Part shown: in pieces, positions 1,819 to 63,521 of the stretch | Layout of the letters: each line of letters begins with the position of its first letter | Numbering within the stretch: position 1 is the stretch's first letter | Assembly (NCBI GenBank): GCA_963849405.1 | Contig: CAWKHG010000006.1 | Location: forward strand, 490,350 to 554,349 | Source: an uncultured Chloroflexia bacterium | GTDB taxonomy: Bacteria > Chloroflexota > Limnocylindria > Limnocylindrales > CSP1-4 | DNA: 64,000 nucleotides | Reading direction: 5' to 3' | The notes under the pieces: model-generated | What the model saw: the letters and a program-made list of their open reading frames with translations, nothing else | Told to the model about the DNA's origin: nothing | Database searches by the model: none | Translations under genes and position numbers: made by a program

Positions 1819-1842
1819 GGGTCTGCTTCTTCGGATTCGCGA

Positions 1843-3246
1843 CTACGGCGCGATGTTGTGGTTCAGGTGGAAGACGTTGTCGGGATCCCAGGCCCGCTTG
1901 AGGGCCGTGAGCCGCTCGAGCTTCGCGTCGCCGTAGATGGCGCGCGTCACCTCGGGCCCGGTCTCGGCGTTCTCGTTCGCGTAGCGGCCGGCGACCCGGC
2001 GGGTGTCGGGCTCGACGATCGCCATCGCCCGGCGCACCCAGCCGACCTGCATCTCGTCGTCGGCGGGGTCCTCCCACGCCGTGTCGGCGCTCACGTCGAA
2101 CCGGGCGTTCCTGCCGGTGAACGCCATCGCATCATCCGGGACGCGTCCGATGGCGCCGCCCTGGACCGTGATCGAGAAGGAGCACCCTTCGGGCCCGCGG
2201 GCGACGTGCTCCACGATCGCGTCGAGGGCCTCCGGGCGGACGTCGTCGGCATAGGCGCCCAGGATGTAGGTCCGGTGGCCCGGTCCCATCGCGAGGTCGT
2301 TCGCAGTCTGCACCTCCAGGTACGGCTGGCTCCCGCCGGTGAGCGAGACCGGCTCGGGACCCTTCAGGATCGGGCCGAGATCGCGATCGACGGCGGCGGC
2401 GTCGCCACTGTGGTTGTAGCCGACGACCACGATCGGCTTGCCGGCGACCGACCCGGGGTACTCCTCGGCAGGCTCCGCGCGGCTGATGGCCAGGATCAGC
2501 GAGACCGTGTCCGGCAGGGCGCGCGGCGTACTCGCGGACGATCGGCCATACCTCATGGACCTGCGATGCGGGGTGGATCCGCGCCCCGCGGTGGAGCAGC
2601 GGACCGAACTCGCGCAGGCCGAACTCGAACGCCGTGACCACCCCGAAGTTGGGACCGGCGCCCCGGATGCCCCAGAAGAGCTCGGGCTCCTCGGTCTCGC
2701 TCGCCCGGATCGTGCGGCCGTCGGCCGTCACGAGCTCGACCGCCTGCAGGTTGTCGATCGTCAGGCCGAAATTGCGCTGGAGCCGGCCCACGCCGCCTCC
2801 GAGGGTGAGGCCGGCGACCCCGGTATGGCCGATCACGCCGATCGGGCACACGAGGCCGTGCGCCTGCGCGGCGACGTCGAGCTCGCCGAGGAGCGCGCCG
2901 CCGTTCGCACGGGCGATCGCGCCGCGTCGGCGTCCACGGTCACGCCGCGCATCCCGGACATGTCGATCACGAGGCCACCGTCCGTCGTCGAGTGTCCGCT
3001 CGCGCTGTGGCCGCCCGACCGGACGGCGATCTCGAGGTCGTGCTCCCGCCCGAACCGGATCGCCGTGGCCACATCGCCGACGCTCGCGGGCCGGACGAGG
3101 AGCGCGGGCCGCCGGTCGAACACCGCGTTCCAGACGCGGCGCGCCTCGTCGTAGACCGCGTCGCTCGGCGTGATGACCTGGCCGCCGCAGGCCTGGCGCA
3201 GGCGGTCGAGATGTCCCGGATCGAGCCCCATCAGCGCTTCGGCCAT
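1843..3246 (-). pseudogene. FAD-binding oxidoreductase, berberine-bridge/PCMH type (FAD_binding_4 + BBE C-terminal), split into three frames
   Basis: ORFs 2833..3246 ([15 protein letters not shown]-binding N-term), 2132..2851 (GVAGLTLGGGVG...LFWGIRGAGPNFGVVT) and 1843..2556 (C-term ...RAWDPDNVFHLNHNIAP) are consecutive parts of one protein in different frames. Confidence 0.6.
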
Positions 3247-3374
3247 GCCTTCGGCCTCCGTTCGTCGCGGTTCGGATCGTCAGGAGCGACCTTACCCGCT
3301 CGCCCGATCGCGCGCGCGACAGGCGGGCGAGAACGAGGCGTCCGCCCTCGGCGCGGGGCGGCGGGAGTGGGCCG

Positions 3375-4614
3375 TCAGGCGGTGTCGCCGGCGTGGACGA
3401 TATGGTCGAACTGCCGCCACAGGATGGCGACGAGCAGCGCCGAGCCGATGAACCCGAACCAGAACGGGGCCGTGATCCCGAACGTACGCGCCAGCAGCCC
3501 CCCGATCGGTGTCCCGATCACCATCCCGCCGACGATCGCGACCCGATAAACGCCGCCCACCCGTCCAAGGAGCTCGTCGGGGACCGCGCGCTGGCGGACG
3601 ACGGTCGAGGTGGTGCCCCACACGAACTCGTGCGCGCCGAAGACCACCAGGGTCGCGAGCGCGACCGCCGCCGACGTCGTCAGGGCCAATACGAGATGCG
3701 TGGCGGTCTCGATGAGGAGGCCAACGCGCATGATGTCGGCCAGCGAGAAGCGCCGCTCCAGGCGCCCGTAGATCGCGAGCCCGATGAGGCCGCCGATGGC
3801 GGCGGCGGTCGTCAGGAGCCCGAATCCGACCTCGTCCATGCCGAGGCGCTCGATCGCGTACAGCACGAGCACCGACCAGGCTGCGCCGAACGTGACGTTG
3901 AACATGACGATCGTGAGTGCCAGCGTCCGCATCGGCGGATGCGCGACGAGCCAGCGGATCCCTTCCACCATCTCGGCCCGCAGGCTGCTCGTCGCTCCCC
4001 GACCGCTCGCGGGCGCCCGTGACGACGCGCGAAACGAGCACCGCGCCGAGCGCGAAGCACGCCGCGTTCGTCGCGAATGGCAGGAACATGCCCGCAGCGA
4101 ACAGGAACGCGCCGATCGGCGGCGCCAGGAGCTGGTTGGTGAGGACGGACGCGCCCTGCATCCGGGCATTGGCGATGCCCAGGTCCTCGCGAGCAACGAG
4201 ACTCGGTATCAGCGTGCTGCCCGCGGCGTCCGCGAAGTTCTCCGCCGTCCCGAGGATGAACAGGACGATCAGGACGACCGCGATATTGACGGTACCCGAG
4301 ACGATCACCGCCACCAGGGCCGTCAGGACCACCGCGCGGCCGATGTTCACCACGATGACCATCCGCTGGCGGTCGAACCGGTCCGCCAGGGCCCCGCTCA
4401 GGACGCCGAAGAGCAGGGCCGGCAGGTATTCGCTCAGGAGCGCCATCGAGACGAGGAACGGATCGCGCGTCTGCGACGCGACGAGCAGCGGGCCGGCCGA
4501 GATCACGACCCCGTCGCCGACGTTGTTGATGACCGTCGCGGCCAGGAGCCAGCGGAAGCTCCGCCCGAGCCTCCGCGGCGCGATGGCCTCGGTCAGCCGC
4601 TCGGTCGGTCGCAC
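3375..4614 (-). pseudogene. MFS transporter (frameshift near 4000-4060)
   Basis: ORF 3292..4614 carries the N-terminal MFS helices (LLAATVINNVGDGVVISAGPLLV...). ORF 3375..4196 carries the C-terminal helices (LALTIVMFNVTFGAAWSVLVLYAIE...). Confidence 0.6.
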
Positions 4615-4696
4615 GCGGGAGAGGGTATCAACGCCCGGCTGCGCCGGTCAGGTTACGGCCCGTGGCGGTCGGGTCGCCCGGCGCGATGAGCCTGGG

Positions 4697-6490
4697 TCAG
4701 CGCCAGCCGATCGCGTCGATCGTGATCACCGGTCGTCCGGACGTCGCGAGGTTCGTGATGACGACCGTGTGCGCACCGGCGCTCAGCCACTTCGAGAGGA
4801 GCAGCTCGCGGTAGTGCGTCGAGGTCGCCCGTCGACCGCCATGGAGACCGGAGTCCACGATGTAGCTCTTCCCGTCGATCGTGACCCGCATCTTGCCCTT
4901 GCTCACGCCGGTCGTTCCGATGAGATAGAAGCGATCGCCGGTGAAGTGCACGACCATCGTGGCGCCCGCGCGGCTGGTCGAGGTCTCCGTGCCGCGGAAG
5001 GCTGCCGAGTTGTGGCGCCGGACTGTCCCGAGGTCGAACTGGAAGGAGCGGTCATCCCTGGGGACGATGACCTTGACCTCCTTCCATGCTGTGACATTGC
5101 CGATGGCGTCGCGGGCGGCCACGGCGATGTACCAGGTGCCCGCGCCGAGGTTCGCGAACGTCCGCGAACGTCCGGCCTGGGAGGTGACGGACGACCACGT
5201 GCCCGTCGCGCCCTTCTTGGTCTTGATGAGGTAGCGGGTCACGGCCTTGTTGTCGGTCGCCCGGAAGTTGACGACGAAGGAGCCGTTCGCCGAGCGCACG
5301 AGCAGTGGAGCGGAGAGTTCGCGCATCACCGGGACGCTCGCGTCCACGACGACGTCGATGTACCGCCAGGCCGACCAGTTCCCGGCGGCGTCCGTCGCCC
5401 GGACGCCGATCCGCCACGACCCGCTCGCGAGGCTGAGGACGCCCGCCGCCGGCATGGCCACGGGCGCCGACCACGAGTGCGTGCCCCGCCGGGTCCGTAC
5501 CTGGTAGCCGGTGACCCCGAGGTTGTCCTTGGCCGAGAAATGGATCTGGAACCGGCCGGGGACCTTCGCCGGGGCGTTGAGGCCGGTCATCTTCGGCACG
5601 GCGTCGTCCGGCAGGAGGGTCATCACGGCGGTGATGTTCCGGAGGTACTGGAGGTGGCGAGTGCTTCCCTCGTGAGTGCCCAGCCAGTGGGCGCTTGCCT
5701 GGCTGATGGTCACGTAGCCGGCCCCGTCGTACACGACGACCAGGTGCGCGAAGGCCTTGACTCCAGCCAGCCAGCTCGGGAACCTGGCGTACGTGTAGCC
5801 GTTGCCCGGGGCGTAAGGCGTGGCGCCGTACACGTCCTGCCACGAGTGGTAGAGCATGTTGCCCCAGTTCAGGGTCGTCCTCGCGTAGCCCTTCGTGCCG
5901 GAGGCGCTCTCGGCCTGGAAGAGCCCCAGCGCGAATGCCGGGTTGACGCCGCTGCTCAGGAGCTCGCTGTAGATCGCGGAACCGGACGAGTACGCGGGCG
6001 AGTTCGTCGCGCGCAGGCGATCGATGAACGAGGCCCGGGTGATCGTGGGCCCGGCGAGGATGTGGTCGGCGGCGTGATTGGCGGTCGGCGGGGCCGGACA
6101 GAGCGAGCGGTTGAGGGTCGCGCTCGCCGTGCCGGTGACTCCGTCGGCGTCGGTGATCGTGACGGTCACGCTCTGCGTGGTGATCGAACAGTTGTTGACG
6201 AGGCGCTTGGTCAGGACCGCGGCGGTGGCGTTCCCACTGGCCTTCGCGACGCCGCGCACGGAGAACACGTAGTGGTAGGGCGCGGTGAAGCCGGCGAAGT
6301 GCCCGGTGACGTCAACGCTCTCGAGGTTCGTGGGGCCGATGCTCACCGCCGCCTGGGTGATCGACACGGTGATCGGGCCGGCGGCCGCGGTGGACGCGGG
6401 AGCGGCCAGCGACCCCAGCGCGACGAGGGTCACGAATGCGGTTGCCAGGATGCGTCGGAGTGCGCCAGGGACGCCGGAATTCAGGAACAC
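4697..6490 (-). CDS. secreted cell-wall hydrolase candidate: signal peptide, Ig-like region, glucosaminidase-like domain, three FN3-like repeats, C-terminal domain shared with 1..1818
   Basis: N-terminal signal peptide MFLNSGVPGALRRILATAFVTLVALGSLAAPASTAAA. Glucosaminidase-like motif FALGLFQAESASGTKGY...TTLNWGNM. Repeated GVTGYQV/TRYLIKT FN3-like blocks. Intact 597-aa ORF. Confidence 0.65.
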   Translation of the reverse strand: MFLNSGVPGALRRILATAFVTLVALGSLAAPASTAAAGPITVSITQAAVSIGPTNLESVDVTGHFAGFTAPYHYVFSVRGVAKASGNATAAVLTKRLVNNCSITTQSVTVTITDADGVTGTASATLNRSLCPAPPTANHAADHILAGPTITRASFIDRLRATNSPAYSSGSAIYSELLSSGVNPAFALGLFQAESASGTKGYARTTLNWGNMLYHSWQDVYGATPYAPGNGYTYARFPSWLAGVKAFAHLVVVYDGAGYVTISQASAHWLGTHEGSTRHLQYLRNITAVMTLLPDDAVPKMTGLNAPAKVPGRFQIHFSAKDNLGVTGYQVRTRRGTHSWSAPVAMPAAGVLSLASGSWRIGVRATDAAGNWSAWRYIDVVVDASVPVMRELSAPLLVRSANGSFVVNFRATDNKAVTRYLIKTKKGATGTWSSVTSQAGRSRTFANLGAGTWYIAVAARDAIGNVTAWKEVKVIVPRDDRSFQFDLGTVRRHNSAAFRGTETSTSRAGATMVVHFTGDRFYLIGTTGVSKGKMRVTIDGKSYIVDSGLHGGRRATSTHYRELLLSKWLSAGAHTVVITNLATSGRPVITIDAIGWR

Positions 6491-48328: not shown

Positions 48329-49275
48329 GTGAGCGTGCCGTCTCCGACCATCCACGTCGCGCGCGACCAGGTCCGGTTCGGGTGGGACCGCAGCTTCGAG
48401 CCGTCGCACTCGGTCCGCAGCGGGGACGAGATCGTCGTCGAGACCCAGGACGCCTCAGCCGGCCAGATCCGGCGCGACGCGACCGTCGAGACCGTCCGGA
48501 CCCTGGACTTCGAGCGGGTCAATCCCGTCTCCGGGCCGATCCTGGTCGAAGGTGCGCGACCGGGCGACGTCCTCCAGGTCGACCTGCTCGACGTGGTCCC
48601 CGGCGACTTCGGCTGGACGGCCCAGATCCCGGGCTTCGGACTGCTGGCCGACGAATACCCGGAGCCGTGGCTGCACCTGTGGACCCTCGAGGCGGACCGG
48701 GCCTCGTTCCGGCCGGGCATCTCGGTGCCGCTGGAGCCGTTCTGCGGCGTCATCGGCGTCGCGCCCGCCGAGCCCGGCCTCCACAGCGTCGTCCCGCCCC
48801 GGCGGGTCGGCGGCAACATGGACATCCGCCAGCTCGGCGCGGGCGCCACGCTCTACCTGCCGGTCGAGGTCGAAGGCGCGCTGCTGGGCATCGGCGACAC
48901 GCACGGCGCCCAGGGCGACGGCGAGGTGTGCGGGACCGCGATCGAGTCCGCGATGACCGTCCGGGCCCGGATCACGCGTGCGCCGGGACATGGCCATCGA
49001 CGGCGCCAGAGTTCGAGGTGCGCCGCCCGCTGGAGCGTCCGAGCGCGGCCGCGGCCGGCTATCACGTCACGACAGGGATCGCGCCGGACCTGCTCGAGGC
49101 GGCGCGGACGGCCGTCCGCCGGATGATCGCCTACCTCGGGAGCGACGCGGGACCTCAGTCCGGCCGATGCCTACGGGCTCTGCTCGGTCGCGGTCGACCT
49201 GAAGATCAGCGAGGTCGTGGACGCCCCGAACTGGGTGGTCTCGGCCTTCCTGCCCGGGGATCTGTTCAGCGACTG
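48329..49275 (+). pseudogene. acetamidase/formamidase family protein (frame shifts ~48990-49150)
   Basis: VNPVSGPILVEGARPGD...GNMDIRQLGAGATLYLPVEVEGALLGIGDTHGAQGDGEVCGTAIE. C-terminus in other frames. Confidence 0.6.
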
Positions 49276-49415
49276 ACTTCCGGCTCCTGCTAGGCTCCTC
49301 GTACGCCGGGCACGCCCCGAGCGAAGGAGCAAGACTCCCGAGCGAAGGCGCCGCGGTGGCGCGGCGCACGACCCGGCGCACGCGATAGACATACTGCCGA
49401 TCTCCCTCGAGGAGC

Positions 49416-50642
49416 ATGTGCCCGATGCCCGATCTCGCGGTCACGATCCAGGCCACGGGTGTGCTGGTCGCGCCAGGTTCGAGCACGTCGTTCACGGTCG
49501 AGGTCACCAATCTCGGCACGGTCGTGGACCGCTACCGCTGCGAGATCGTGGGCATGGACCCGAGCTGGGTGACGGTCACGCCCGCGTCGATGGAGTTGTT
49601 CCCCCAGGCCGGCGACGCGCGCCCGCGCCCGGACTCCCCGCCGTCGGTCGGCCGGTTCACGATCACGCTCCACCCACCACGCGTCCCGGCGGCGGTCGCC
49701 GGTCCATGGCCGATCGGCGCCCGGGTCACGAGCGAGCACGATCCGGCCAGCCGGCGGGTCGAGGAGACGATCGTCGCGATCCTGCCATTCGGCGCCCTCG
49801 ACGCGAAGCTGCATCCGTCGATCGCGGGCGGCCGCCTGGGCGCCAAGGCGAACATCCAGGTCACCAATCAGGGCAACCGGCCCGAGGCCGTCACGATCCT
49901 GGGCTCCGATCCGGCCGACAAGCTCTCGTTCGAGTTCCGGCCGCCAACCGCGAACCTGGGTCCGGGCGACTCGCTCGGCGTCGTGGCGCGCCTGGCCGGC
50001 GGAGGCATCAAGCTGTTCGGCGGGACCGAGACGCGCCCGTTCAAGCTCGACGTCCGCGCCTCGTCGAGCGACACCGAGCCCCAGGTCCTGAGCGGCACGT
50101 TCGAGCGGCGGGCGCTCGTCCCGTCCGGGCTGGGCGCCGCCCTGGCGGTCATCGCCGCGCTGGCGCTCGGCGCCGTGGCCGTCTTCGGGCTCACCCGGCC
50201 GCCCGCCCCCGTGGCCACGCCGCCTCCGGGAGCCACGCCGCTCGTCCTGGTCGTCACGGCACCGCCGACCGACGCACCACCTACGGCCCCGCCGACCGCG
50301 CCGCCGACCGAAGCCCCGCCCAGCTCTGCACCCCCCACTGAGCCTCCCCCGACGGCGCCGCCGATCGATCCGAACACGTGCATCCCCGGCTACGTCTGGC
50401 GGGAGGCCTTCGAAGGCGACGTCGTGTGCGTCACCCCGGACGAGCGGCAGCGAGCCGCGGACGACAATGCCGCCGCGGCGTCGAGGATCGATCCGGGCGG
50501 CGCCTACGGCCCGAACACGTGCATCGCAGGTTTCGTGTGGCGCGTGGCGCGCCCGGAGGACGTCGTCTGCGTCCTCCCGGAGGAGCGCCAGCGCGTGGCG
50601 GACGACAACGCAGCGGCCTCCTCGCGCCGGGTCGGCCCCTGA
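49416..50642 (+). CDS. membrane protein: two CARDB/Ig-like N-terminal domains, one TM helix, Pro-rich linker, duplicated C-terminal Cys motif (NTCIxG(Y/F)VWR-A---DVVCV-P-ERQR-ADDNAAA)
   Basis: Intact 408 aa. TM LGAALAVIAALALGAVAVFGL. Linker PPTDAPPTAPPTAPPTEAPP. Two 42-aa repeats at the C-terminus. Confidence 0.55.
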   Translation: MCPMPDLAVTIQATGVLVAPGSSTSFTVEVTNLGTVVDRYRCEIVGMDPSWVTVTPASMELFPQAGDARPRPDSPPSVGRFTITLHPPRVPAAVAGPWPIGARVTSEHDPASRRVEETIVAILPFGALDAKLHPSIAGGRLGAKANIQVTNQGNRPEAVTILGSDPADKLSFEFRPPTANLGPGDSLGVVARLAGGGIKLFGGTETRPFKLDVRASSSDTEPQVLSGTFERRALVPSGLGAALAVIAALALGAVAVFGLTRPPAPVATPPPGATPLVLVVTAPPTDAPPTAPPTAPPTEAPPSSAPPTEPPPTAPPIDPNTCIPGYVWREAFEGDVVCVTPDERQRAADDNAAAASRIDPGGAYGPNTCIAGFVWRVARPEDVVCVLPEERQRVADDNAAASSRRVGP

Positions 50643-50652
50643 GGCTGAGGGC

Positions 50653-52800
50653 TCAGACGGCCACGATGCGGTTGCGGCCTGCCCGCTTGGCCATCGAGAG
50701 CGCCACATCCGCCGAACGGATCAGGGATTCCGGCGTCGTCTCCCCGACCTCGGCCTCCGCGCACCCGGCCGACACGGTCACCGGGGACTTCTTGCCGATC
50801 GCGTCGACCATCGGCGCCGCCTCGAGCGCGCCCCGGATCTCCTCCGCGATCCGGCAGGCGTCCGCCCGCGAAGCGCCCTGGAGGATCGCGATGAACTCCT
50901 CGCCGCCATAGCGCCCGACCAGGTCGGCCTCGCGCAGGCGCCCCTGGAGCAGCTTCCCGAACGTTCGCAGCACGTCGTCGCCGGCCAGGTGGCCGTGGAG
51001 CTTGTTGAACGCCCCGAAGTGGTCCAGGTCGAACAGGATGATCGAGAGCGGCTGGCGCTCGCCCTCGGCGAGCCGGGTGCGTGCCGCGGTGAGCGTGCGG
51101 AACGCCTCATCCAGGAAGCGCCGGTTGTGGAGGCCGGTCAGGGGGTCGCGGATCGCCAGCTCCGCGACCTCGCCGTGGAGCAGGGCGTTGCTCACGGCCA
51201 GGGTGATCTCGCCGGCCAGCAGCTCGAGGGCCTCGAGCTCGAGGTCGGTGAACGGCCGGTCGTGGTCCGCCCGGGCGACCGTCAGGGCGCCGAGGATGCC
51301 CCCGTCCCCGATGAGCGGCACTCCCAGGGCCCAGCCGTATTCGTCGAGGGCGTTGCCGCCCCGCAGGGTGCTCGGGTAGTCCGCGCGACGGAAGTGTTCC
51401 ACGCGGACGAGCTTGCCCTCCTTGATCGCGCGGCCGGCCATCCCCTCCCCCGGTTCGATGACGTTGCCGCTGGCACCCGTGCTGCCCTGCACCGCACGCG
51501 CGATGTACGAGCCCGACGAGTTGCGCACGATCACGGCGACGAGCTGGGCCGGGACGACGTCGTCGACGGCATTCACGATCACGTCGTACAGCTCGTCGGC
51601 CGCGAGCACCGAGCTGACCTTGGCCGAGAACGAGACGATCCGCTGGAAGACGCGGGCGCGCTCGGCCAGGTTCGCCCGTTCGATGGCCAGGGCGAGCGTG
51701 ACGGCGACCCGGTCGGCGACCACGCTGACGGCGGCGAGGTCGTGCTCGTCGAGCGGAGTCGGGCTCTCCACGTTGAGCACCCCGAGGAAGGCTCCGTGGG
51801 CCAGGAGCGGGACCGAGATCTCGCTCTGGATGCCCGGGTCCGCGCTGATGTAGTCGGGATCGACCGACACGTCCGGCAGGAACGCCGCCTCGCGGGTCCG
51901 GGCGACGCGGCCGATGACGCCCTTCGATGGCTCGAACTCGTAGATCGGGTTCGCGTAGCCGCGCTGCGCGCCGAGTCGGAGGATGGCGCCATCGCTCGTG
52001 TAGATCGAGGGATAGGTGTAGCCGAAGGTGTCCACGAGCAGGCCGACGACACCGTCGAGGGTCTCCTCCGTCGGACCCTGTTCGGCCAGGGCGCGACCGA
52101 TGGCCTCCATCCCGCGGAGCTGGCCGAGGGTCACCTCGGCGCGCCGGCTCGCCGCCCGGAGGTCGCGGCGTCGCTCGTGGGCGGATCGGGTCTGTTCGAC
52201 CACCCGGCGACGCGTCGTCCCGAGCAGGGCCTGGCCGACGAGGCTGATGATCCCGCCAAGGGCGAAGCCGGTCAGGAGGCCGACTCGCTCGCGATCGATC
52301 GCCGTGTTGTCGCCGCCGGCCACGAAGACGCCCGCCAGCAGGGCCGCGCCGGCCGCGAGCCAGACCAGGTGCTGGCGTGTCCCCCACGGTACGAACAGGA
52401 TGAGGGCCATCGGCAGCATGCCGACGAGGGAGACCGCGTAATCGGAGACACCCGGCGACTCGGTGACGACGGCGCCCAGGATCCCCGCCAGGCCGAAGAA
52501 CCCGAACACGCCGGCCAGCGCCGACAGCCAGCGGTCGGGGAACCGGCTCGCCAGGACCCACAAGCCGGCGAAGACGATGCCGACGCCGAGCGCGACCATC
52601 GTCGTGGCACTGGGCGCGCCGAGGACGACGTGGACCACCGCCGAGCCGAGCGAGAGCCCGGAGGCGATGATCGCCGCGACCTTGAGGCCGCGCCGCAGCT
52701 GGCGCGCCTCGGCGCGGCGCAGCACCTTGTCGTCCTCGGACATGGGCGGCCGCAGGGCACGCCCGGATGCGTCCGGCGGGACGGATTCCGAGACTGTCAC
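50653..52800 (-). CDS. membrane-anchored GAF-domain diguanylate cyclase (GGDEF)
   Basis: 6 N-terminal TM helices, two GAF-like regions, RYGGEEF active-site motif, DLDHFGAFNKLHGHLAGD. Confidence 0.8.
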   Translation of the reverse strand: MTVSESVPPDASGRALRPPMSEDDKVLRRAEARQLRRGLKVAAIIASGLSLGSAVVHVVLGAPSATTMVALGVGIVFAGLWVLASRFPDRWLSALAGVFGFFGLAGILGAVVTESPGVSDYAVSLVGMLPMALILFVPWGTRQHLVWLAAGAALLAGVFVAGGDNTAIDRERVGLLTGFALGGIISLVGQALLGTTRRRVVEQTRSAHERRRDLRAASRRAEVTLGQLRGMEAIGRALAEQGPTEETLDGVVGLLVDTFGYTYPSIYTSDGAILRLGAQRGYANPIYEFEPSKGVIGRVARTREAAFLPDVSVDPDYISADPGIQSEISVPLLAHGAFLGVLNVESPTPLDEHDLAAVSVVADRVAVTLALAIERANLAERARVFQRIVSFSAKVSSVLAADELYDVIVNAVDDVVPAQLVAVIVRNSSGSYIARAVQGSTGASGNVIEPGEGMAGRAIKEGKLVRVEHFRRADYPSTLRGGNALDEYGWALGVPLIGDGGILGALTVARADHDRPFTDLELEALELLAGEITLAVSNALLHGEVAELAIRDPLTGLHNRRFLDEAFRTLTAARTRLAEGERQPLSIILFDLDHFGAFNKLHGHLAGDDVLRTFGKLLQGRLREADLVGRYGGEEFIAILQGASRADACRIAEEIRGALEAAPMVDAIGKKSPVTVSAGCAEAEVGETTPESLIRSADVALSMAKRAGRNRIVAV

Positions 52801-52918: not shown

Positions 52919-55300
52919 TCAGGCCGGGAAGGCCAGGAAGGTCCCGTCCTCCGCGCGCGGGATCGGCACGATACGGACCACGGCCTCGCGCGGGATCGAT
53001 CGGTAGATGTGCGGGAAGCGCCGTTCCTCGTCGTCGTAGCGCCAGTCGTCGCCGAGCCGGCCGAGGTCGATCGACGCCACGAGGAACGGCCGCGGGTCGT
53101 CGCGGTAGAAGCGATCGCCCGAGGCCCGCAGCCCTTCGACCCCGTCCGTGCAGTGGACGAAGCCCTCCGTCGCGAGCGACGCCGGTTCATAGTCGGCGCC
53201 GGGCTCGAGCGCATCCCAGGTCTCGGCGGCCACGAGGTGATAGGTGACGTGCGCGGTCGCGGCGGACGGTGCCGCGATCTCCGCCGCGGGAGTCGCCGTC
53301 TCCGTCGTGGGGGTGGCCTCCGAAGCGGAGACGTCCTCCTCGGACCTGGGCGGGGCATCCACGCTGGCCGGATGGTCGATCGAGACCCAGCGCCGGTCGA
53401 GCGGCAGGTGGATGACGGTCGGGCCATCGGCCACCAGCGCCTCGCGCAGGACCTCCTCGAACTTCGCGTCGTCCTCGACCAGGACGCCTCGCGCCCCGAA
53501 GCCCTCGGCGAGCTTCACGACGTCCAGCGGGCCGAGCTCGGTCCCGACGCCGAGACCCGTCCCGCGCAGCCCCTGGTGCATCCGGATCGTCCCGTAGCGC
53601 CGGTTGTCGAAGACGAGCAGCACGATCCGGCAGTGCTCGCGGACGGCCGTCTCGAGCTCGGCCATGGTCATGCCGAACCCGCCGTCCCCGGTCACCCCGA
53701 TCACGGCCCGCTCGTGGTGGACGAGCGAGGCCGCGATGGCCGCGGGTAAGGCGTAGCCCATCGCGCCGGACGTCGGACCAAGGAACGTGCCCGGCCGGCG
53801 GCAGCGATAGCCGCGGGCGAGCCATCCGGCGAAGTTGCCGGCGTCGGTGGCGACGATCGCCTCCGGCGGCAGGACCCGGTTCATGGTCGCCACGATCCGG
53901 CCGGGGTGCACGCCCGGGCCGTCCCACTCCCCACCGTCGACGACCGTCGCAGCCTCCCAGGCGGCCCGGTCCGTCGCGTTGGCGATCCGCCGGGCATCGA
54001 GGCTGTCCTTGTCGTGCACGGTGCCTGCGAGCAGGCGCGCCGCGACGCGCAGGAAGGTGCGTGCGTCGGCCTGGATCGCGAGGTCCGGCGGCCGGAGGCC
54101 CGCCTTGGCGGTCCGCGGCTCGACATCGACGTGGGTCCAGCGCTGGCGCTCGCCGGGTACCAGGTAGTCCATCGAGGTGGGCTCGTTGAGCCGACATCCG
54201 ACGACGAGCAGCTCATCCGCGTCGGTGAGCCGTTCGGCGAGCACCTCGGGGGCCGCATAGCCGGTCATGCCAAGGTACAGCGGATGGTCGTTCGGGAAGA
54301 CGTCCGCGCGCCGCCAGGACGCCACCACCGGCACCTCGAGGATCTCCGCGAGGCGCACGAGATCCGCGGTCGAGCGGGCCCGCAGCACACCGGCCCCGGC
54401 GACGATCAGCGGGCGCTTGCCTGCGGTCAGCCGCCGGATCGCCGTGCGCACGACATCCGGGTCGGGATCGGCCGGTCGGCTGCGGACGACGTGGGCGACC
54501 TCCGTGCCGTCGGGCATCGTCTCGTCCAGGACGTCCTCCGGCACCGCGATGACGACGGGGCCGGGCCGTCCACCGAGGGCCTGGCGGGTCGCTTCGGACA
54601 TCGCGGCGGGCAGCCGGGCCGGGTCGTCCACCTCGATGGCCCAGGTCGCGAGGCGGCCGATGGAGCCAGGCAGGTCGGCCTCCTGGAACGCTTCCCGGCC
54701 GCGAACGGCGCGCGGCACGTGGCCGAGCACGGCGAACATCGGCGTCGAGTCGGCCTTCGCCGTGTGGATCCCGATCGCGAGGTTGGATGCTCCGACCGCA
54801 CGGGTCGCGAGCGCGGCCGCAGGCCGGCCGGTCAGCTGGCCGTACGCCTCGGCCATGAACGCGGCGCCACCTTCGTGGCGGGTCGCGACGACGCGGATGC
54901 CGGCCGGCCCCAGCGCATCGAGGAGTCCGAGGAAGCTCTCGCCGGGCACGGTGAACGCGACACGGACGCCGGCCGCATGCAGCGCGTCCGCCAGGAAGCG
55001 ACCCGCCGTGCGCGGTGGGCCGGGCGGCGGCGGAGGCGGTTCGGGCGCGGGGGGCGGCCCGGCCGCCGGCTCGGGGGCGCTGGGCGGCGCAGGCGGCGCG
55101 GCGGGCGGCGCGTCCGCCGTCGACTCGTCGGGGGGCGCGATCGTAGCCGCCGCGGGCGCGGCACCGGCCGTCGCGGGCGCGGACTCGTCACGGAGCCCGT
55201 AGCCGGATGGGGGCGGGGCGGCGTCGCCCGACCGCTCCACCGCCGGCTCGTCTGCCGGGGGCGCGGGGGCCGTGCTGTCTTCGCTCCGGACGTCGGTCAC
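52919..55300 (-). CDS. thiamine-diphosphate enzyme (acetolactate-synthase-like) with Pro/Ala-rich N-terminus and C-terminal DUF952 fusion
   Basis: TPP_N (RFLADALHAAGVRVAFTVPGE), central and TPP-binding (GDGGFGMTMAELETAV..) domains. C-terminal HVTYHLVAAETWDALEPGADYEPASLATEGFVHCT...FPHIYRSIP matches DUF952. Confidence 0.7.
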   Translation of the reverse strand: MTDVRSEDSTAPAPPADEPAVERSGDAAPPPSGYGLRDESAPATAGAAPAAATIAPPDESTADAPPAAPPAPPSAPEPAAGPPPAPEPPPPPPGPPRTAGRFLADALHAAGVRVAFTVPGESFLGLLDALGPAGIRVVATRHEGGAAFMAEAYGQLTGRPAAALATRAVGASNLAIGIHTAKADSTPMFAVLGHVPRAVRGREAFQEADLPGSIGRLATWAIEVDDPARLPAAMSEATRQALGGRPGPVVIAVPEDVLDETMPDGTEVAHVVRSRPADPDPDVVRTAIRRLTAGKRPLIVAGAGVLRARSTADLVRLAEILEVPVVASWRRADVFPNDHPLYLGMTGYAAPEVLAERLTDADELLVVGCRLNEPTSMDYLVPGERQRWTHVDVEPRTAKAGLRPPDLAIQADARTFLRVAARLLAGTVHDKDSLDARRIANATDRAAWEAATVVDGGEWDGPGVHPGRIVATMNRVLPPEAIVATDAGNFAGWLARGYRCRRPGTFLGPTSGAMGYALPAAIAASLVHHERAVIGVTGDGGFGMTMAELETAVREHCRIVLLVFDNRRYGTIRMHQGLRGTGLGVGTELGPLDVVKLAEGFGARGVLVEDDAKFEEVLREALVADGPTVIHLPLDRRWVSIDHPASVDAPPRSEEDVSASEATPTTETATPAAEIAAPSAATAHVTYHLVAAETWDALEPGADYEPASLATEGFVHCTDGVEGLRASGDRFYRDDPRPFLVASIDLGRLGDDWRYDDEERRFPHIYRSIPREAVVRIVPIPRAEDGTFLAFPA

Positions 55301-59557: not shown

Positions 59558-61852
59558 TCAGTGGCCGGGATCGTCGATGTCGGCGTGGCTCACGAGCCAG
59601 TTGTCCGGTCCATAGACGATCCGCGGCACGGCCGGGTTACGGGGGTCGCCCGGCCCGATGATGCCGTAGCGCTCCATCTCGTCCATGAGCCGGCTCGCCC
59701 GGCTGAAGCCGACCTTGAGCTTGGTCTGGAGCATCGAGGTCGACGCCTTGTTCAGGGTCGTCACGAGCTCGGCCGCCAGGACGACCATGTCGTCGTCGGC
59801 CATCGCCGCGAGCCACTTGAACTGGCCGTTGCCGCCGCCGTCCTCGGCGCTGAAGTCCATGAACGACTCGTCGTAGAACGTCCGGCCGCCGGCCAGGTCG
59901 AGCCAGTGCTTGCCGACGGCATTCACCTCCGCGTCGCTCACGAAAACGCCCTGGAGGCGCATGGGACGGGGCAGGTCGACGGGCTGGTAGAGCATGTCGC
60001 CCCGGCCGATGAGGTCCTCCGCCCCGGGCGCGTCGAGGACGGTCCGGCTGTCGATCATCGAGGCCATCGCGAAGGCCATCCGGGACGGCACGTTGGCCTT
60101 GATGAGGCCGGTCACGACGTTGACCGACGGTCGCTGCGTCGCGAGCACGAGGTGGATGCCCACGGCGCGCGCCTTCTGGGCGATCTTGACGATCGGCTCC
60201 TCGACCTTCTGGCCCTCGCGCATGATCAGGTCGGCCAGCTCGTCGATGATGATCACGATGTACGGGAGGCGCTCCTCGGCGGGGACGTCGGGGCTCGCGT
60301 TGAACGCGGCGATGTTGCGGACGCCCTTCGAGGCGAGGGCCTTGTAGCGCTCCTCCATCTGGCGCACGGCGCCGTTGAGGGCGGCCTTGGCGTTCGACGG
60401 CTCGACGATGACGGGCTGGAGCAGGTGCGGCAGCCGGTCGTACGGGGCGAGCTCGACCCGCTTGAGGTCGATGAGGATGAGCCGGACCTCCTCGGGCTTG
60501 GCGTGCATCAGGAGGCTCGTGATGAGCGCGTTGATGCAGACGCTCTTGCCCGAGCCGGTGGCCCCGGCCACGAGCAGGTGGGGCATCTTGGCGAGGTCGA
60601 CGGCATAGGCCTTGCCCGAGACGTCGCGCCCCAGCGCGAACGAGAGGCGGCTGTCGGCGTCGAGCATCTTGGTGTCCTCGACGAGCCGTCGGAAGCTCAC
60701 GATCTCCGACTTCACGTTGGGGATCTCGATGCCGACGACGTCCTTGCCCGGGATCGGCGCCTCGATCCGTATGGAGCGGGCCGCCAGGGCCATCGCCAGG
60801 TCGTCGGCCAGCGCCTCGATCCGGGAGAGCTTGATGTGGCGCTCCGGCCGGACCTCGTACTGGGTCACCACCGGGCCGGTGTTCGTCGCCACGACGGTGG
60901 CCGGGATCCCGAAGCTGTTGAGCTTGTCCTCGATGATCCGGATGTTGTCCTCGTGGTTCGCCCGTGTCGTGGTGACGGGTGGGTCGGGCACGACCGTCAG
61001 CAGGTCGATCGGCGGGAGGATCCACGTCGGGCCGTCGGGCAGGTAGCCGTCCTCGGCCTCGAGGAGGTCGACCGCCGTCGCCGACGGGGCCCGCAGTGCG
61101 CCGCCGCCACGGGCATCCGCCCCGCCCCGCAGGCCGCCCGACACGACGGTCTGGCTCATGGGGGCTTCGCTGGGTACCGGCGCCGGTGAGCGTCGCGGCG
61201 GGGCGATCTCGCCCGGATCGACCATCGTCGGGCGCCCGACTCCCCGATCGGCGGCGGCCTTGGCCTTGGCGGCCCGGGCAGCCGCGGCCTCGGGGGCCTC
61301 CGCGACCACCGTGCCGAGGCTCGTCAGGCCGCGCCGGAACGGGGCCACGAACTCGGCGAGGCGCAGGTTGGCGGTGATGAGGATGCCGCCGACGAACACG
61401 GCGGCCAGGACGATGAACGCCCCGGGCCGGGTGATCAGCGAGCCGAGCACGTCGGCGAGGAACGTCCCGATGCGCCCGCCGCCGCGCACCGGCAGGAACT
61501 CGAACAGGCCGAGGAGGGCGGCGTAGGAGACGATCGCCGCCACGAGCCGCGTCCGCCAGCCCGGACCGAGGGGCCGCCACTCGATGAGGCCGCCGGCGGT
61601 CAGCAGGAAGATCGGCAGCAGCCAGCGGCCGGTGCCGAAGTTGGGCAGGACGACGTTGCGGGCCCAGTCGGTGAGGGTCCCCTGCGAGCTCGGGATCGCC
61701 AGCATGATCAGCGTCAGGGCGCCCAGGACGAGGAGCGTCAGCCCGACGAGCGAGCGGACGACGTCCGGCGGGATGTTGACCGAGGGCATGCCCAGCCCGC
61801 CGCCCCGCCGGGGACGGCTGCGGCGCGCCGGTGCGCGTCGTCGGGAGCTCAC
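59558..61852 (-). CDS. ftsK: DNA translocase FtsK/SpoIIIE
   Basis: N-terminal TM segments. Walker A GATGSGKS. C-terminal gamma/winged-helix domain. Confidence 0.85.
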   Translation of the reverse strand: MSSRRRAPARRSRPRRGGGLGMPSVNIPPDVVRSLVGLTLLVLGALTLIMLAIPSSQGTLTDWARNVVLPNFGTGRWLLPIFLLTAGGLIEWRPLGPGWRTRLVAAIVSYAALLGLFEFLPVRGGGRIGTFLADVLGSLITRPGAFIVLAAVFVGGILITANLRLAEFVAPFRRGLTSLGTVVAEAPEAAAARAAKAKAAADRGVGRPTMVDPGEIAPPRRSPAPVPSEAPMSQTVVSGGLRGGADARGGGALRAPSATAVDLLEAEDGYLPDGPTWILPPIDLLTVVPDPPVTTTRANHEDNIRIIEDKLNSFGIPATVVATNTGPVVTQYEVRPERHIKLSRIEALADDLAMALAARSIRIEAPIPGKDVVGIEIPNVKSEIVSFRRLVEDTKMLDADSRLSFALGRDVSGKAYAVDLAKMPHLLVAGATGSGKSVCINALITSLLMHAKPEEVRLILIDLKRVELAPYDRLPHLLQPVIVEPSNAKAALNGAVRQMEERYKALASKGVRNIAAFNASPDVPAEERLPYIVIIIDELADLIMREGQKVEEPIVKIAQKARAVGIHLVLATQRPSVNVVTGLIKANVPSRMAFAMASMIDSRTVLDAPGAEDLIGRGDMLYQPVDLPRPMRLQGVFVSDAEVNAVGKHWLDLAGGRTFYDESFMDFSAEDGGGNGQFKWLAAMADDDMVVLAAELVTTLNKASTSMLQTKLKVGFSRASRLMDEMERYGIIGPGDPRNPAVPRIVYGPDNWLVSHADIDDPGH

Positions 61853-61855
61853 TGG

Positions 61856-63521
61856 CTAGACCTCCACGACGACCGGGAAGACCATCGGCCGCCGCTTCGT
61901 GCGCTCGTACAGGTGGCGCGAGACGGCGTCCTTGATCTGGACCTTGAGGAGCGCGATCTCGCTGATGTGGTCGCCCGGGTTCTCGATCGCCGCGACGACC
62001 CGGTCCGTCGTCGACTCGATGATCGGGTCGTTCTCGTTGGGCACGAAACCGCGGGTGATGATCTCCGGCCGGCCGATGACCGTGCCGGTCTGCTTGTCCA
62101 CGGTCACGACGATCATGAACATGCCGTCGTTGGCCAGGGCCCGCCGGTCGCGCAGGACGACCTCGCCGACCTCGCCGACGGAGAGGCCGTCCACGAACAC
62201 GTAGCCCCGCGACCACGGGCTGGCCGCGGCGGGCGGAGCCGTCGGGCAGGATCTCGATCGGCGTGCCGTTCTCGATGATGAACACGTTCTCGGGCAGGAC
62301 GCCGGTCTCGATCGCCAGGCGGCCGTGCTGGACCTGCATCCGGAACTCGCCGTGGATCGGGATGAAGTGCTTGGGCTTGGTGAGCCCGAGCATGAGCTTG
62401 AGCTCCTCCTGGCTGGCATGGCCCGAGACGTGGGCCCGCTTGATCGTGTGGTAGAAGACGTTCGCGCCGGCCTTGAACAGGTTGTCGATCGTCCGGCTCA
62501 CGTATTCCTCGTTGCCGGGGATCGGGCTGGCGCTGACGATGACCGTGTCGCCCGGGACGATCTCCACGAACCGGTGGTCGCGGTTGGCCATCCGGGCCAG
62601 GCCGGCCATCGGCTCGCCCTGGGCGCCCGTCGTCGCGATGCACAGCTTGTCGGCCGGGACCTCGCTGATCTTGTCCTTGGCCACGATCTGGGACGGCGGG
62701 TACTTCAGGTAGCCGAGGTCGGTCGCGATCCGGAAGTTCTGCTCCATCGACCGGCCGATGACGGTGACCTTGCGGTCGAACTGCGCCGCGGCGTCGAGCA
62801 CCTGCTGGACGCGGGCGATGTTGCTCGCGAACGTGGCCACGATGACCCGCCCGTCGAGCGGCTCCATGATCTCGCGGAACGCCTCGCCGACCGTCCGCTC
62901 GGATGGCGTGTAGCCGGGGTTCTCGGCGCGCGTGGAGTCCGAGAGCAGGCACACCACGCCTTCCTCGCCGAGCCGGGCCAGGATCGCGAAGTCGGACAGC
63001 TTGCCGTCGACCGGCGTGTGGTCGAACTTGAAGTCGCCGGTGTGCACGATCGTCCCGACCGGCGTCCGCAGGGCGATGCCCATCGCGTCGGGGATCGAGT
63101 GGCCGATGCGGAACGGGATGACCGTGAACGGGCCGATCGTGACCTCGTCCCCGGGCTCCAGGGCCAGCATCGGGTTGTTGTGGAGCTTGTGCTCCTTGAT
63201 CTTGTTGCCGAGCAGGCCCCGGGCGAGCGTGCTGGCGTAGACGGGCACGCCCGGGAACTCGGGCAGCACGTACGGCAGGCCGCCGACGTGGTCCTCGTGG
63301 GCGTGGGTGATGAGGAACGCCCGGACGTTGGCCCGGTGTTCCTTGAGATAGGTGATGTCGGGGATGACGAGGTCGATGCCGAACATCTCCTCGTCCGGGA
63401 ACATGAGCCCGCAGTCGATGACGACGATGTCGTCGCCGTACTCGAAGAGGTACATGTTCTTGCCGATCTCGCCCACCCCGCCGAGCGGGATGATGCGGAG
63501 CGGTCGGGTTTCGTCAACCAT
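61856..63521 (-). pseudogene. rnj: ribonuclease J (frameshift ~62220-62240)
   Basis: HAHEDHVGG metallo-beta-lactamase motif in the frame of ORF 59637... C-terminal domain (GYVFVDGLSVGEV...) in ORF 61856..62419. Confidence 0.7.

Follow-up and report, generated by a model that had tools for sequence, protein, structure and literature searches.

A tandem cysteine repeat of an unnamed, multi-phylum family in the putative ectodomain of a Limnocylindria-class Chloroflexota membrane protein

What is the duplicated cysteine repeat found at the C-terminal end of a membrane protein encoded in a 64-kb window (the whole stretch of 64,000 nucleotides that was analysed), and what could such a repeat do? 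The first-pass annotation of this window had reported a protein with two CARDB/Ig-like domains, one transmembrane (TM) helix and two copies of a repeat that could not be assigned to a known domain. The explanation put forward here is that of a bitopic membrane protein, from a Chloroflexota bacterium of the class Limnocylindria, whose ectodomain would bind an envelope ligand; taken as a whole, it is considered slightly more probable than its opposite.

The open reading frame announced at 49416-50642 is present. In the ORF list it lies on the plus strand and in its longest form has 408 aa (from ATG 49416), and its GC3 is 0.91, versus 0.60-0.70 in the overlapping alternative ORFs. Two of these, 49290-50708 on the minus strand and 49418-50341 on the plus strand, were rejected as shadow ORFs according to their codon-position GC. 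Translation probably begins at ATG 49425 rather than ATG 49416, since a GAGGAG motif is found 10 nt upstream of the former and only 1 nt upstream of the latter, and since M(P/S)xLAV (MPxLAV or MSxLAV) is the called start in most full-length relatives. One relative (P0121) is 97% identical to the window protein over the query. The features are given below; residues are numbered along the 408-aa ORF.

49409..49414, plus strand: GAGGAG, Shine-Dalgarno-like, read directly off the sequence; putative role in start choice.
49425..50642 (stop included), plus strand: membrane-protein coding sequence, 405 aa from ATG 49425.
49434..49781, plus strand: Ig-like beta-sandwich 1, predicted cytoplasmic, aa 7-122 (AlphaFold and Foldseek).
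49797..50108, plus strand: Ig-like beta-sandwich 2, predicted cytoplasmic, aa 128-231 (AlphaFold and Foldseek).
50130..50192, plus strand: single TM helix, aa 239-259 (Kyte-Doolittle and AlphaFold).
50193..50369, plus strand: Pro/Thr/Ala-rich linker or stalk, about aa 260-318 (composition).
50370..50495, plus strand: Cys repeat unit 1, PNTCIPGYVWREAFEGDVVCVTPDERQRAADDNAAAASRIDP, aa 319-360 (BLASTP, AlphaFold and family consensus).
50379-50381 and 50427-50429, plus strand: Cys codons of unit 1 (C322, C338).
50511..50636, plus strand: Cys repeat unit 2, PNTCIAGFVWRVARPEDVVCVLPEERQRVADDNAAASSRRVG, aa 366-407 (BLASTP, AlphaFold and family consensus).
50520-50522 and 50568-50570, plus strand: Cys codons of unit 2 (C369, C385).

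The C-terminal part contains two copies of the repeat with two Cys each, as annotated: 29 of 39 residues are identical (74%; BLASTP E = 4e-20), as are 87 of 126 bases at the DNA level. The proposed length of 42 aa holds for the core only; a connector of 5 aa comes after it and brings the period to 47 aa. The AlphaFold model of the di-repeat (pLDDT 93.2, pTM 0.80) gives a beta-hairpin and a helix per unit, with helices at residues 29-45 (unit 1) and 76-92 (unit 2) of the model. Both units pack together into a compact body, and the two Cys of a unit are placed on adjacent hairpin strands or bridges. Each unit would consist of a short beta-hairpin (C-x2-G-[FY]-V-W-R ... D-x-V-C-V), for which a clamping intra-unit disulfide is probable, then of a helix of 17 residues in which an R and an N are conserved. 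Two 47-aa units would form one pseudo-symmetric extracytoplasmic module of ~90 residues.

The repeat is not peculiar to the window protein. A 92-aa di-repeat query gave 1,165 matches in 90% clusters (best E 8e-46). A profile search gave 2,564 clusters at 50% identity; E was <= 1e-30 for 1,193 of these. Among the matches listed in GTDB genomes, where a degenerate DNA motif scan biased to strict-motif units was used, the repeat is found in Actinomycetota, Chloroflexota, alpha-, beta- and gamma-Proteobacteria, Cyanobacteria and Acidobacteriota; further carriers among them are Gemmatimonadales, Deinococcus, Nitrospira, Eremiobacterota and Flavobacteriaceae. The unit motif of the family is (Y)GPxTC-x2-G-[FY]-V-W-R-x-A-x3-D-x-[VI]-C-V-x-P-x2-R-x6-N. 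Both Cys are conserved at 99-100% across 576 unique units, and the W, R, D and N positions are also near-invariant. Unit spacing peaks at 47-48 aa. The number of units is even in 374 of 409 family proteins (mostly 2, 4, 6 or 8), so the pair is the unit of the family. The conservation of the Cys fits a structural disulfide, and the mostly even counts fit a paired unit. The family occurs as small secreted proteins or lipoproteins, the commonest form being a stand-alone secreted two-repeat protein. The repeat is a new domain family, large and multi-phylum, without a name and ordinary in kind. The window protein is assigned to this Cys di-repeat family according to both its motif and its tandem pairing: its units carry all near-invariant positions (C, G, V, W, R, A, D, V, C, V, R, N) and follow each other at 47 aa.

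The rest of the protein corresponds largely to what had been annotated. It contains one TM helix (aa 239-259; Kyte-Doolittle peak 2.56 at aa 239-257; 236-256 in AlphaFold model numbering), flanked by RR on its N-terminal side and by one R on its C-terminal side. The Pro/Thr/Ala linker was likewise found: aa 258-318 (61 residues) include 24 P, 10 T and 10 A. It is presumed to be extended and wall-crossing. Relatives also have PTAS-rich tails, with a PTAS fraction of 0.6-0.8 over the first 70 residues. The two CARDB/Ig-like domains stand at the level of fold and weakly by sequence. In the AlphaFold model (pLDDT 88), which shows two sandwiches, strands of the first span E4-E119 and those of the second E125-E228, in model numbering. 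Foldseek matches the N-terminal half to HYDIN/CFA65/CEP192 (ASH-type) Ig domains at E 3e-11 to 1e-8. Pfam thresholds for CARDB, FixG_C or ASH membership were not reached: the window protein gave no Pfam family at E <= 0.05 for this half, and the matches of its 46 relatives (FixG_C in 15, best E 6e-4; CARDB in 3; Cep192_D3 in 3) fall below the curated cut-offs, as their E-values imply. Like the ASH/HYDIN/CEP192 and FixG_C/CARDB Ig domains, the half is made of seven- to eight-stranded beta-sandwiches (Foldseek E about 1e-11). Unlike them, it has no Pfam match in the window protein and belongs to a narrow family, about 45 clusters from Limnocylindria-like (Chloroflexota) genomes, in which charged residues are conserved unusually strongly.

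The window gene is one member of this small Limnocylindria paralogue family, in which the cytoplasmic Ig-like pair is kept and the ectodomain is varied. The ectodomain slot is occupied either by the Cys di-repeat, by two LGFP repeats (14 of the 46 relatives), by PASTA (e.g. P0316) or by other beta-rich modules, and some paralogues carry modules X, Y and Z of no assigned type. In one pair of tandem paralogues, the N-terminal halves are 97% identical and the ectodomains differ. Within the 64-kb window, no second copy of the N-terminal half or of the di-repeat was found.

Family proteins carry the repeat together with PASTA (5 of 73 proteins), SH3_3 (SH3b), LGFP, fn3 or Big domains. The repeat is also fused to TIR domains (5 of 73 and 4 of 94 proteins) and, via a single TM helix, to Ser/Thr kinase, Peptidase_C14 caspase, nSTAND1 or FHA domains. 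The genes of the repeat-bearing Ser/Thr kinases sit within arrays of paralogous kinases; a PknB-type cell-wall operon context was ruled out for them. Uncharacterised Caulobacter proteins (e.g. L019:1736-2797) come closest to the layout of the window protein: their N-terminal FixG_C/NEW3-like Ig domain lacks a signal peptide, a single TM helix and a Pro-rich spacer come next, and two Cys repeats form the C-terminal end. They differ by a single Ig-like domain instead of two, by an inserted PASTA and by their phylum. Homology between their Ig domain and the N-terminal half of the window protein was not significant (hhalign E 0.012, probability 3.5%).

From N to C terminus, the window protein would comprise two cytoplasmic Ig-like domains, one TM helix, a Pro/Thr/Ala stalk of ~60 residues and an ectodomain of ~90 residues. 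The ectodomain would bind an envelope ligand, the leading candidate being a cell-wall (peptidoglycan-associated) component. The stalk would place this module within or past the wall, and the conserved cytoplasmic Ig-like pair would serve as an intracellular interaction surface. The preferred reading, given a little better than even confidence, is that of an ectodomain which would bind a ligand of the envelope or cell wall and is carried by a cytoplasmic Ig-like scaffold. The idea of wall binding comes from the association with PASTA, LGFP and SH3b. PASTA domains bind muropeptides and lipid II (PMC3145798, PMC6428115), and the LGFP domains of MytA bind peptidoglycan-arabinogalactan, according to the summary in PMC11299179. 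The ectodomain slot need not be wall-binding, since paralogues carry modules X, Y and Z. In the family at large, receptor-like proteins also have the repeat as their ectodomain, with Ser/Thr kinase, TIR, FHA, STAND NTPase or Ig-like domains on the cytoplasmic side. A broader proposal is that of a pan-bacterial sensor of peptidoglycan or another envelope ligand, with a new fold and functionally equivalent to PASTA, which would link wall state to varied cytoplasmic outputs; the stand-alone secreted forms would be soluble binders of the same ligand. This proposal is tentative and rather less probable than not. The outputs in question are Ser/Thr kinases, TIR, caspase-like and STAND proteins, and here the Ig-like scaffold.

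The same partners fit a general sensor equally well, since the kinases are found in arrays and not in a PknB operon and since TIR, caspase and STAND partners are many. Instead of the cell's own wall, the di-repeat would then perceive a signal in solution, a foreign protein or a phage-derived cue and would pass this on through the membrane to the cytoplasmic module attached to it, here the Ig-like pair as an adaptor. The joining of such effectors, kinases and FHA domains included, through one TM helix speaks for this, as do tandem paralogues that differ in their ectodomains but hardly in their cytoplasmic halves, as in a repertoire of receptors. However, the near-invariance of W, R, D, N and Cys across phyla argues for one common ligand rather than for a variety of cues, most family members lack an output domain and are small secreted proteins, and the repeat both co-occurs with and replaces the wall-binding PASTA and LGFP. 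A general sensor is regarded as a rather unlikely reading.

A protein-protein or oligomerisation module, or a rigid cap, clustering its carriers on the membrane's outer face with no small-molecule or glycan ligand, is distinctly improbable. The pairwise packing with unit counts of mostly 2, 4, 6 or 8, the compactness of the two-unit model (pTM 0.80) and the many unrelated partner domains would suit such a module. Carrier clustering nevertheless explains poorly why secreted proteins with two repeats and nothing else are the form met most often, and the invariant polar R, D and N could make a binding site.

Could the repeat be instead a divergent copy of a described domain (PASTA, LGFP, a TNFR-like CRD, a lectin or a peptidoglycan-binding module), and nothing new? 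Its earlier description as unassignable held against Pfam, NCBIfam, the PDB and Foldseek. No significant match to the protein or to the isolated di-repeat was found in Pfam, NCBIfam, PHROGs or PADLOC, and neither single-sequence nor profile searches of the PDB gave a credible match (mL100, at E 0.0035, has no stretch passing alone). Foldseek searches of the di-repeat against the PDB and BFVD (viral structures) gave a best E above 2, none in the PDB being below 2.7. In the full-text literature, no paper was found with the motif strings GFVWREA, GYVWREA or their variants.

Three candidates were considered by name. The TNFR/RANK CRD (PF18278) was rejected: the RANK_CRD_2 match, which weakly favours a known domain, aligns 14 residues at E 0.021 and scores 15.4 bits versus a cut-off of 26.8. 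PASTA (PF03793; PknB/PrkC-type kinases, PBPs) was rejected in the absence of a Pfam match even at E <= 10 and of a PDB Foldseek match below E 2.7. Like the repeat, PASTA forms small alpha+beta tandem extracytoplasmic modules located C-terminal to the single TM helix of Ser/Thr kinases; it shares proteins with the Cys repeat (Caulobacter L019, Nocardia L061) and takes the same slot in the paralogue P0316. Unlike the repeat, its units have about 65-70 aa rather than 47, and the conserved Cys pair and two-unit pairing are proper to the repeat. Ligand binding is documented for PASTA, whereas for the Cys repeat a ligand is only proposed. LGFP (PF08310, the C-terminal wall-binding domain of Corynebacterium MytA), phase-shifted arrangements included, was also rejected: there was no Pfam match, and when the repeat was aligned by hhalign to the paralogues' LGFP tails the probability was 0.1% (E 0.54). 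LGFP resembles the repeat by its ~50-residue extracytoplasmic tandem units, made of a helix and a small sheet, by the Cys pair that it sometimes carries (PMC11299179) and by its slot in paralogues. It differs by its other conserved motifs and by the lack of a structural match in the PDB. The shared alpha+beta build of LGFP and PASTA would favour a divergent known domain. Against it, curated Pfam and NCBIfam thresholds were never reached, and structures of PASTA and of the MytA LGFP domain are in the PDB, yet none was retrieved. This alternative is very improbable.

Small extracytoplasmic repeats such as PASTA, LysM, SH3b and LGFP reveal how bacteria sense or hold their own envelope. The present repeat adds an envelope-type module that has no counterpart in Pfam, NCBIfam or the PDB, is predicted with confidence to fold compactly, occurs in at least 2,564 clusters and more than ten bacterial lineages, and is recurrently wired to kinases, TIR, caspase and STAND-type effectors. 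A domain name and a ligand would give an annotation to thousands of 'hypothetical' secreted proteins, many of them in Mycobacterium, Nocardia, Streptomyces and Micromonospora. A ligand would also give an input to orphan receptor kinases and membrane TIR proteins. The consequence for the window gene itself is smaller than for the family.

The N-in/C-out orientation proposed in the first-pass annotation is supported by the relatives. A signal peptide or anchor lies N-terminal to the repeats in 161 of 266 family proteins. One protein (L082) has a Pkinase domain at 16-265, a TM helix at 320-338, then six repeats; another (L025) has nSTAND1, a TM helix, then two repeats. TIR-TM-repeat and FHA-TM-repeat proteins were also found. 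Since the repeat follows a signal peptide or the TM helix of kinase, TIR, FHA or STAND proteins in these relatives, it is predicted to be extracytoplasmic, and this placement supports the orientation of the window protein. A signal peptide was found neither in the window protein, as annotated, nor in any of 40+ relatives of its N-terminal half. In the family of this half, every member with a complete tail has 2 or 4 Cys in its ectodomain, members with an incomplete tail have 0 or 1, and the N-terminal half usually has one. The reverse orientation, or a missed signal peptide exporting the Ig-like domains, would leave the Cys repeat in the cytoplasm and is hardly credible: bacteria have their Ig-like, CARDB and FixG_C-type domains more often outside the cytoplasm and the charge bias at the TM helix is modest (RR versus R), but the ORF begins at the first start codon past a stop, leaving no in-frame upstream extension, the structures that match the N-terminal half best are Ig domains of the intracellular ASH type, and neither the relatives without signal peptide, nor the outer location of the repeat in kinase, TIR, STAND and signal-peptide proteins, nor the pairing of Cys in the ectodomain alone is in accordance with it.

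Scans for promoters, terminators and tandem repeats around the gene gave nothing informative. No conserved operon was found around the window gene, its orthologues or the mycobacterial stand-alone members. The neighbours of the window gene encode a formamidase, a GGDEF protein and an AlkZ-like glycosylase, and this neighbourhood is kept in close relatives only.

The ORF at 49416..50642 (+) encodes 408 aa according to the ORF list, and its product (the window protein) ends in two Cys-containing units, as the first-pass annotation had described:

50370-50495, + strand: Cys unit 1, aa 319-360, C-terminal copy
50511-50636, + strand: Cys unit 2, aa 366-407, C-terminal copy

The units are identical at 29/39 residues (BLASTP E = 4e-20) and 87/126 bases. 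The repeat, previously given as 42 aa, has a core of this length; its period is 47 aa, including a 5-aa connector. Neither half of the protein recurs in the window according to a six-frame motif scan and tblastn. The + frame is considered coding because its GC3 is 0.91 (codon-position GC: 0.72/0.59/0.91) versus 0.60-0.70 in the overlapping ORFs of either strand, the window having ~71% GC. Translation likely starts at the second ATG (49425): GAGGAG (49409-49414) is located 10 nt before this codon and only 1 nt before the first ATG, and for most full-length relatives the start has been called at MPxLAV or MSxLAV.

One strong TM segment (aa 239-257, hydropathy scan) precedes a linker of 61 residues (24 Pro, 10 Thr, 10 Ala) and the Cys units; helix and Pro/Thr/Ala linker are as first annotated. 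The AlphaFold model of aa 4-262 (46 homologues as input; pLDDT 88) includes two beta-sandwiches (model residues 4-119 and 125-228), then a helix (model residues 236-256). Both sandwiches match Ig-like domains of the PDB in Foldseek; the best matches are ASH-type domains of HYDIN/CFA65-like ciliary proteins and CEP192 (E 3e-11 to 1e-8), which are intracellular. For the two CARDB/Ig-like domains initially proposed, the fold is thus retained, but the window protein itself has no hit in Pfam; FixG_C is matched weakly by 15/46 relatives, and CARDB, Cep192_D3 or HYDIN-like Ig by a few. In the model of aa 313-408 (123 sequences as input; pLDDT 93.2, pTM 0.80), each Cys unit consists of a short beta-hairpin, in which C..G.VW pairs with D.VCV, and then a 17-residue helix; both units together make up a single compact body.

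This Cys di-repeat belongs to a large, widespread family; neither its sequence family nor its predicted fold has a counterpart in the libraries searched. Nothing significant was found for the repeat in Pfam, NCBIfam, PHROGs and PADLOC; sequence and profile searches of the PDB gave no credible match, Foldseek of the di-repeat model against the PDB and viral predicted structures gave none with E < 2, and a full-text literature search with the motif strings found no paper. The earlier statement that the repeat is not assignable to a known domain therefore stands. The sole Pfam line, RANK_CRD_2, scores 15.4 bits for a cut-off of 26.8, over 14 residues. A 92-aa query matched 1,165 proteins among 5.8 billion clusters (best E 8e-46); its best matches are nearly all 'hypothetical proteins' of 95-160 aa in which a hydrophobic leader at the N-terminus is combined with two units. 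Against 1.84 billion representatives at 50% identity, a profile gave 2,564 proteins at E <= 1e-3 (1,193 at E <= 1e-30), a large family that none of the libraries searched describes. Matches listed from a degenerate DNA motif scan (one genome per GTDB species) include Actinomycetota (Micromonospora, Streptomyces, Nocardia, Mycobacterium and others), Chloroflexota, alpha-, beta- and gamma-Proteobacteria, Cyanobacteria, Acidobacteriota, Gemmatimonadales, Deinococcus, Nitrospira, Eremiobacterota and Flavobacteriaceae.

Searching with an HMM of the units yielded 576 unique units (consensus YGPxTCxxG[YF]VWREAxxGDxVCVTPxxRxQxAxDNAxAxxR), a set partly biased by the strict motif of the DNA scan; both Cys are conserved at 99-100% and G, V, W, R, A, D, V, R and N at 93-99%. 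Proteins carry two (n=248), four (n=115), six (n=8) or eight (n=3) units; odd counts are found in 35. The pair is therefore considered as the structural unit, as the AlphaFold model also indicates. The di-repeat is very probably a real, extracytoplasmic domain of a family absent from these libraries; on a bitopic membrane protein it is of an ordinary kind, i.e. a small extracytoplasmic tandem module. In Mycolicibacterium sp. HS_4_1 (L123/L124, ~80-6450), three separate di-repeat-encoding stretches within ~6.5 kb adjoin a large AAA_16/GerE (LuxR-type) regulator gene, pointing to paralogues of the small secreted form that are clustered at this locus.

Relatives of the N-terminal half number only ~45; the few with names belong to Candidatus Limnocylindria/Limnocylindrales (Chloroflexota), which is the likely source group of the window. 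None of the relatives has a signal peptide; all carry a linker rich in P/T/A/S and, near residue 235-245, a TM helix. The Ig-like pair has many invariant charged residues. Every relative with a complete tail has two or four Cys in the ectodomain (the module C-terminal of the linker), and usually one in the N-terminal half. The ectodomain is the Cys di-repeat in the closest relatives (69-97% identity), two LGFP repeats in 14 relatives, PASTA in P0316, PASTA-like by eye in P0318 and P0319, and unclassified beta-rich modules in others. P0141 (Cys di-repeat) is 97% identical over the first 230 aa to P0143 (unclassified module) and 86.5% identical to P0137 (LGFP). DNA identity of the P0141 and P0143 genes is 95-100% up to the end of the Pro/Thr linker and collapses beyond. 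Their contigs overlap, and the next paralogue begins ~57 nt after the 3' end of the Cys-type gene; the two genes are thus tandem paralogues that have a common chassis and differing ectodomains:

L127:327-1723 and L128:1-1799: Cys-di-repeat gene, then gene with an unrelated two-Cys beta-rich module

The LGFP-type genes are found at a separate locus, adjoining luciferase-like and CN-hydrolase genes. The exchanged modules are non-homologous, since hhalign did not relate the Cys repeat to the LGFP tails (probability 0.1%). LGFP-type paralogues (P0137, P0144-P0157; C-terminal ~135 aa; L002:8001-9338) end in a conserved hydrophobic stretch that follows a Cys pair (example: ...CFIIVHPSLKIFLPNP) and may act as a signal for sorting or anchoring. 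A zinc-ribbon plus PASTA protein (L126:7234-8424) adjoins the PASTA-type paralogue P0316, with a Ser/Thr kinase gene nearby.

In 161 of the 266 family proteins scanned, the repeats come directly after an N-terminal signal peptide or anchor (the leader threshold is crude and misses weaker leaders, e.g. P0166); 18 have a longer N-terminal region, then one TM helix.

Partner domains found by Pfam scans of longer family proteins (genomic ORFs, n=73; representatives, n=94). -, no entry.
PASTA: 5/73; 1/94
TIR_2: 5/73; 4/94
Pkinase: 2/73; 3/94
FixG_C Ig: 3/73; -
SH3_3: 2/73; 1/94
fn3: 2/73; 2/94
Big_7: 2/73; 2/94
Reprolysin-type metallopeptidase: -; 2/94
FHA: 1/73; -
nSTAND1: 1/73; -
Peptidase_C14: -; 1/94
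LGFP: -; 1/94
Inhibitor_I36: 1/73; 1/94
Cadherin_4, Cadherin_5 (cadherin-like): -; 1/94 each

Architectures of unambiguous topology are L082 (Pkinase 16-265, TM 320-338, six repeats at 422-689), L025 (nSTAND1 54-432, TM 498-516, two repeats), L088 (TIR, TM, two repeats) and L003 (FHA, TM, Ig-like domain, two repeats). All have the repeats outside; the predicted N-in/C-out topology, first proposed from the lack of a signal peptide, is therefore well supported. Caulobacter proteins (L019, 1736-2797; L033, 2186-3322; L111, 2825-3877) share the layout of the window protein with an added PASTA domain: FixG_C/NEW3-like Ig 30-108, TM 131-149, PASTA 157-217, two repeats. PASTA seems unusual in Caulobacter, an alphaproteobacterium. 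Repeat-bearing Ser/Thr kinases are encoded in arrays where paralogous kinase genes follow one another (three in L082:78-6194, two in L041:2955-6515), only one kinase per array carrying Cys repeats. In the Nocardia protein L061, the N-terminus is zinc-ribbon-like and is combined with a TM helix, four PASTA domains and a single Cys repeat.

Muropeptides and lipid II are ligands of PASTA ectodomains (PMC3145798, PMC6428115); LGFP domains of MytA bind peptidoglycan-arabinogalactan, as summarised in PMC11299179. The best reading is that the Cys di-repeat would bind a conserved envelope component, the leading candidate being a peptidoglycan-associated ligand, because it is located where paralogues have PASTA or LGFP, is found alongside PASTA, SH3b and LGFP elsewhere, and has a polar and aromatic core near-invariant across phyla. 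A real extracytoplasmic di-repeat of a family absent from these libraries together with a wall-component ligand is slightly favoured; the wall component as ligand, taken by itself, is a tentative proposal somewhat below an even chance. Extended, the ~60-residue stalk would reach ~15-20 nm (~0.3 nm per residue), placing the module in or beyond the wall, and the cytoplasmic Ig-like pair would be an intracellular interaction surface. A PASTA-like wall-sensing role across bacteria, including membrane TIR, caspase and STAND proteins, is doubtful. Slightly less likely is a general sensor ectodomain: associations with TIR, caspase, STAND and kinase arrays and a paralogue repertoire of differing ectodomains would fit, but the extreme conservation of the di-repeat and the dominance of stand-alone secreted forms speak against it. 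The pairing rule fits an oligomerisation or structural module, which accounts poorly for the stand-alone forms and is improbable. Reversed topology of the window protein is contradicted by all family evidence and is highly improbable.

The window gene is flanked by a formamidase gene and a convergent GGDEF gene, a synteny kept in close relatives only. The formamidase/acetamidase gene just upstream (48329-49276, +) has an internal stop when read through in a single frame, ~60 middle codons being in another frame; its orthologue in the relative locus L001 (6930-7868) is intact. The pattern resembles a pair of compensating frameshifts, either from assembly indel errors or in a pseudogene. The 1,294-aa ORF at 59637-63521 (-) has RNase J-type Lactamase_B, beta-CASP and RMMBL domains within the first ~413 residues only; the last ~880 residues have no match in Pfam at 1e-5, and the ORF may be an over-extended call or an unusual fusion. 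At 52919-55300 (-), one ORF encodes a thiamine-pyrophosphate enzyme (TPP_enzyme_N, M and C domains) with a C-terminal DUF952; this fusion is also called in L001.
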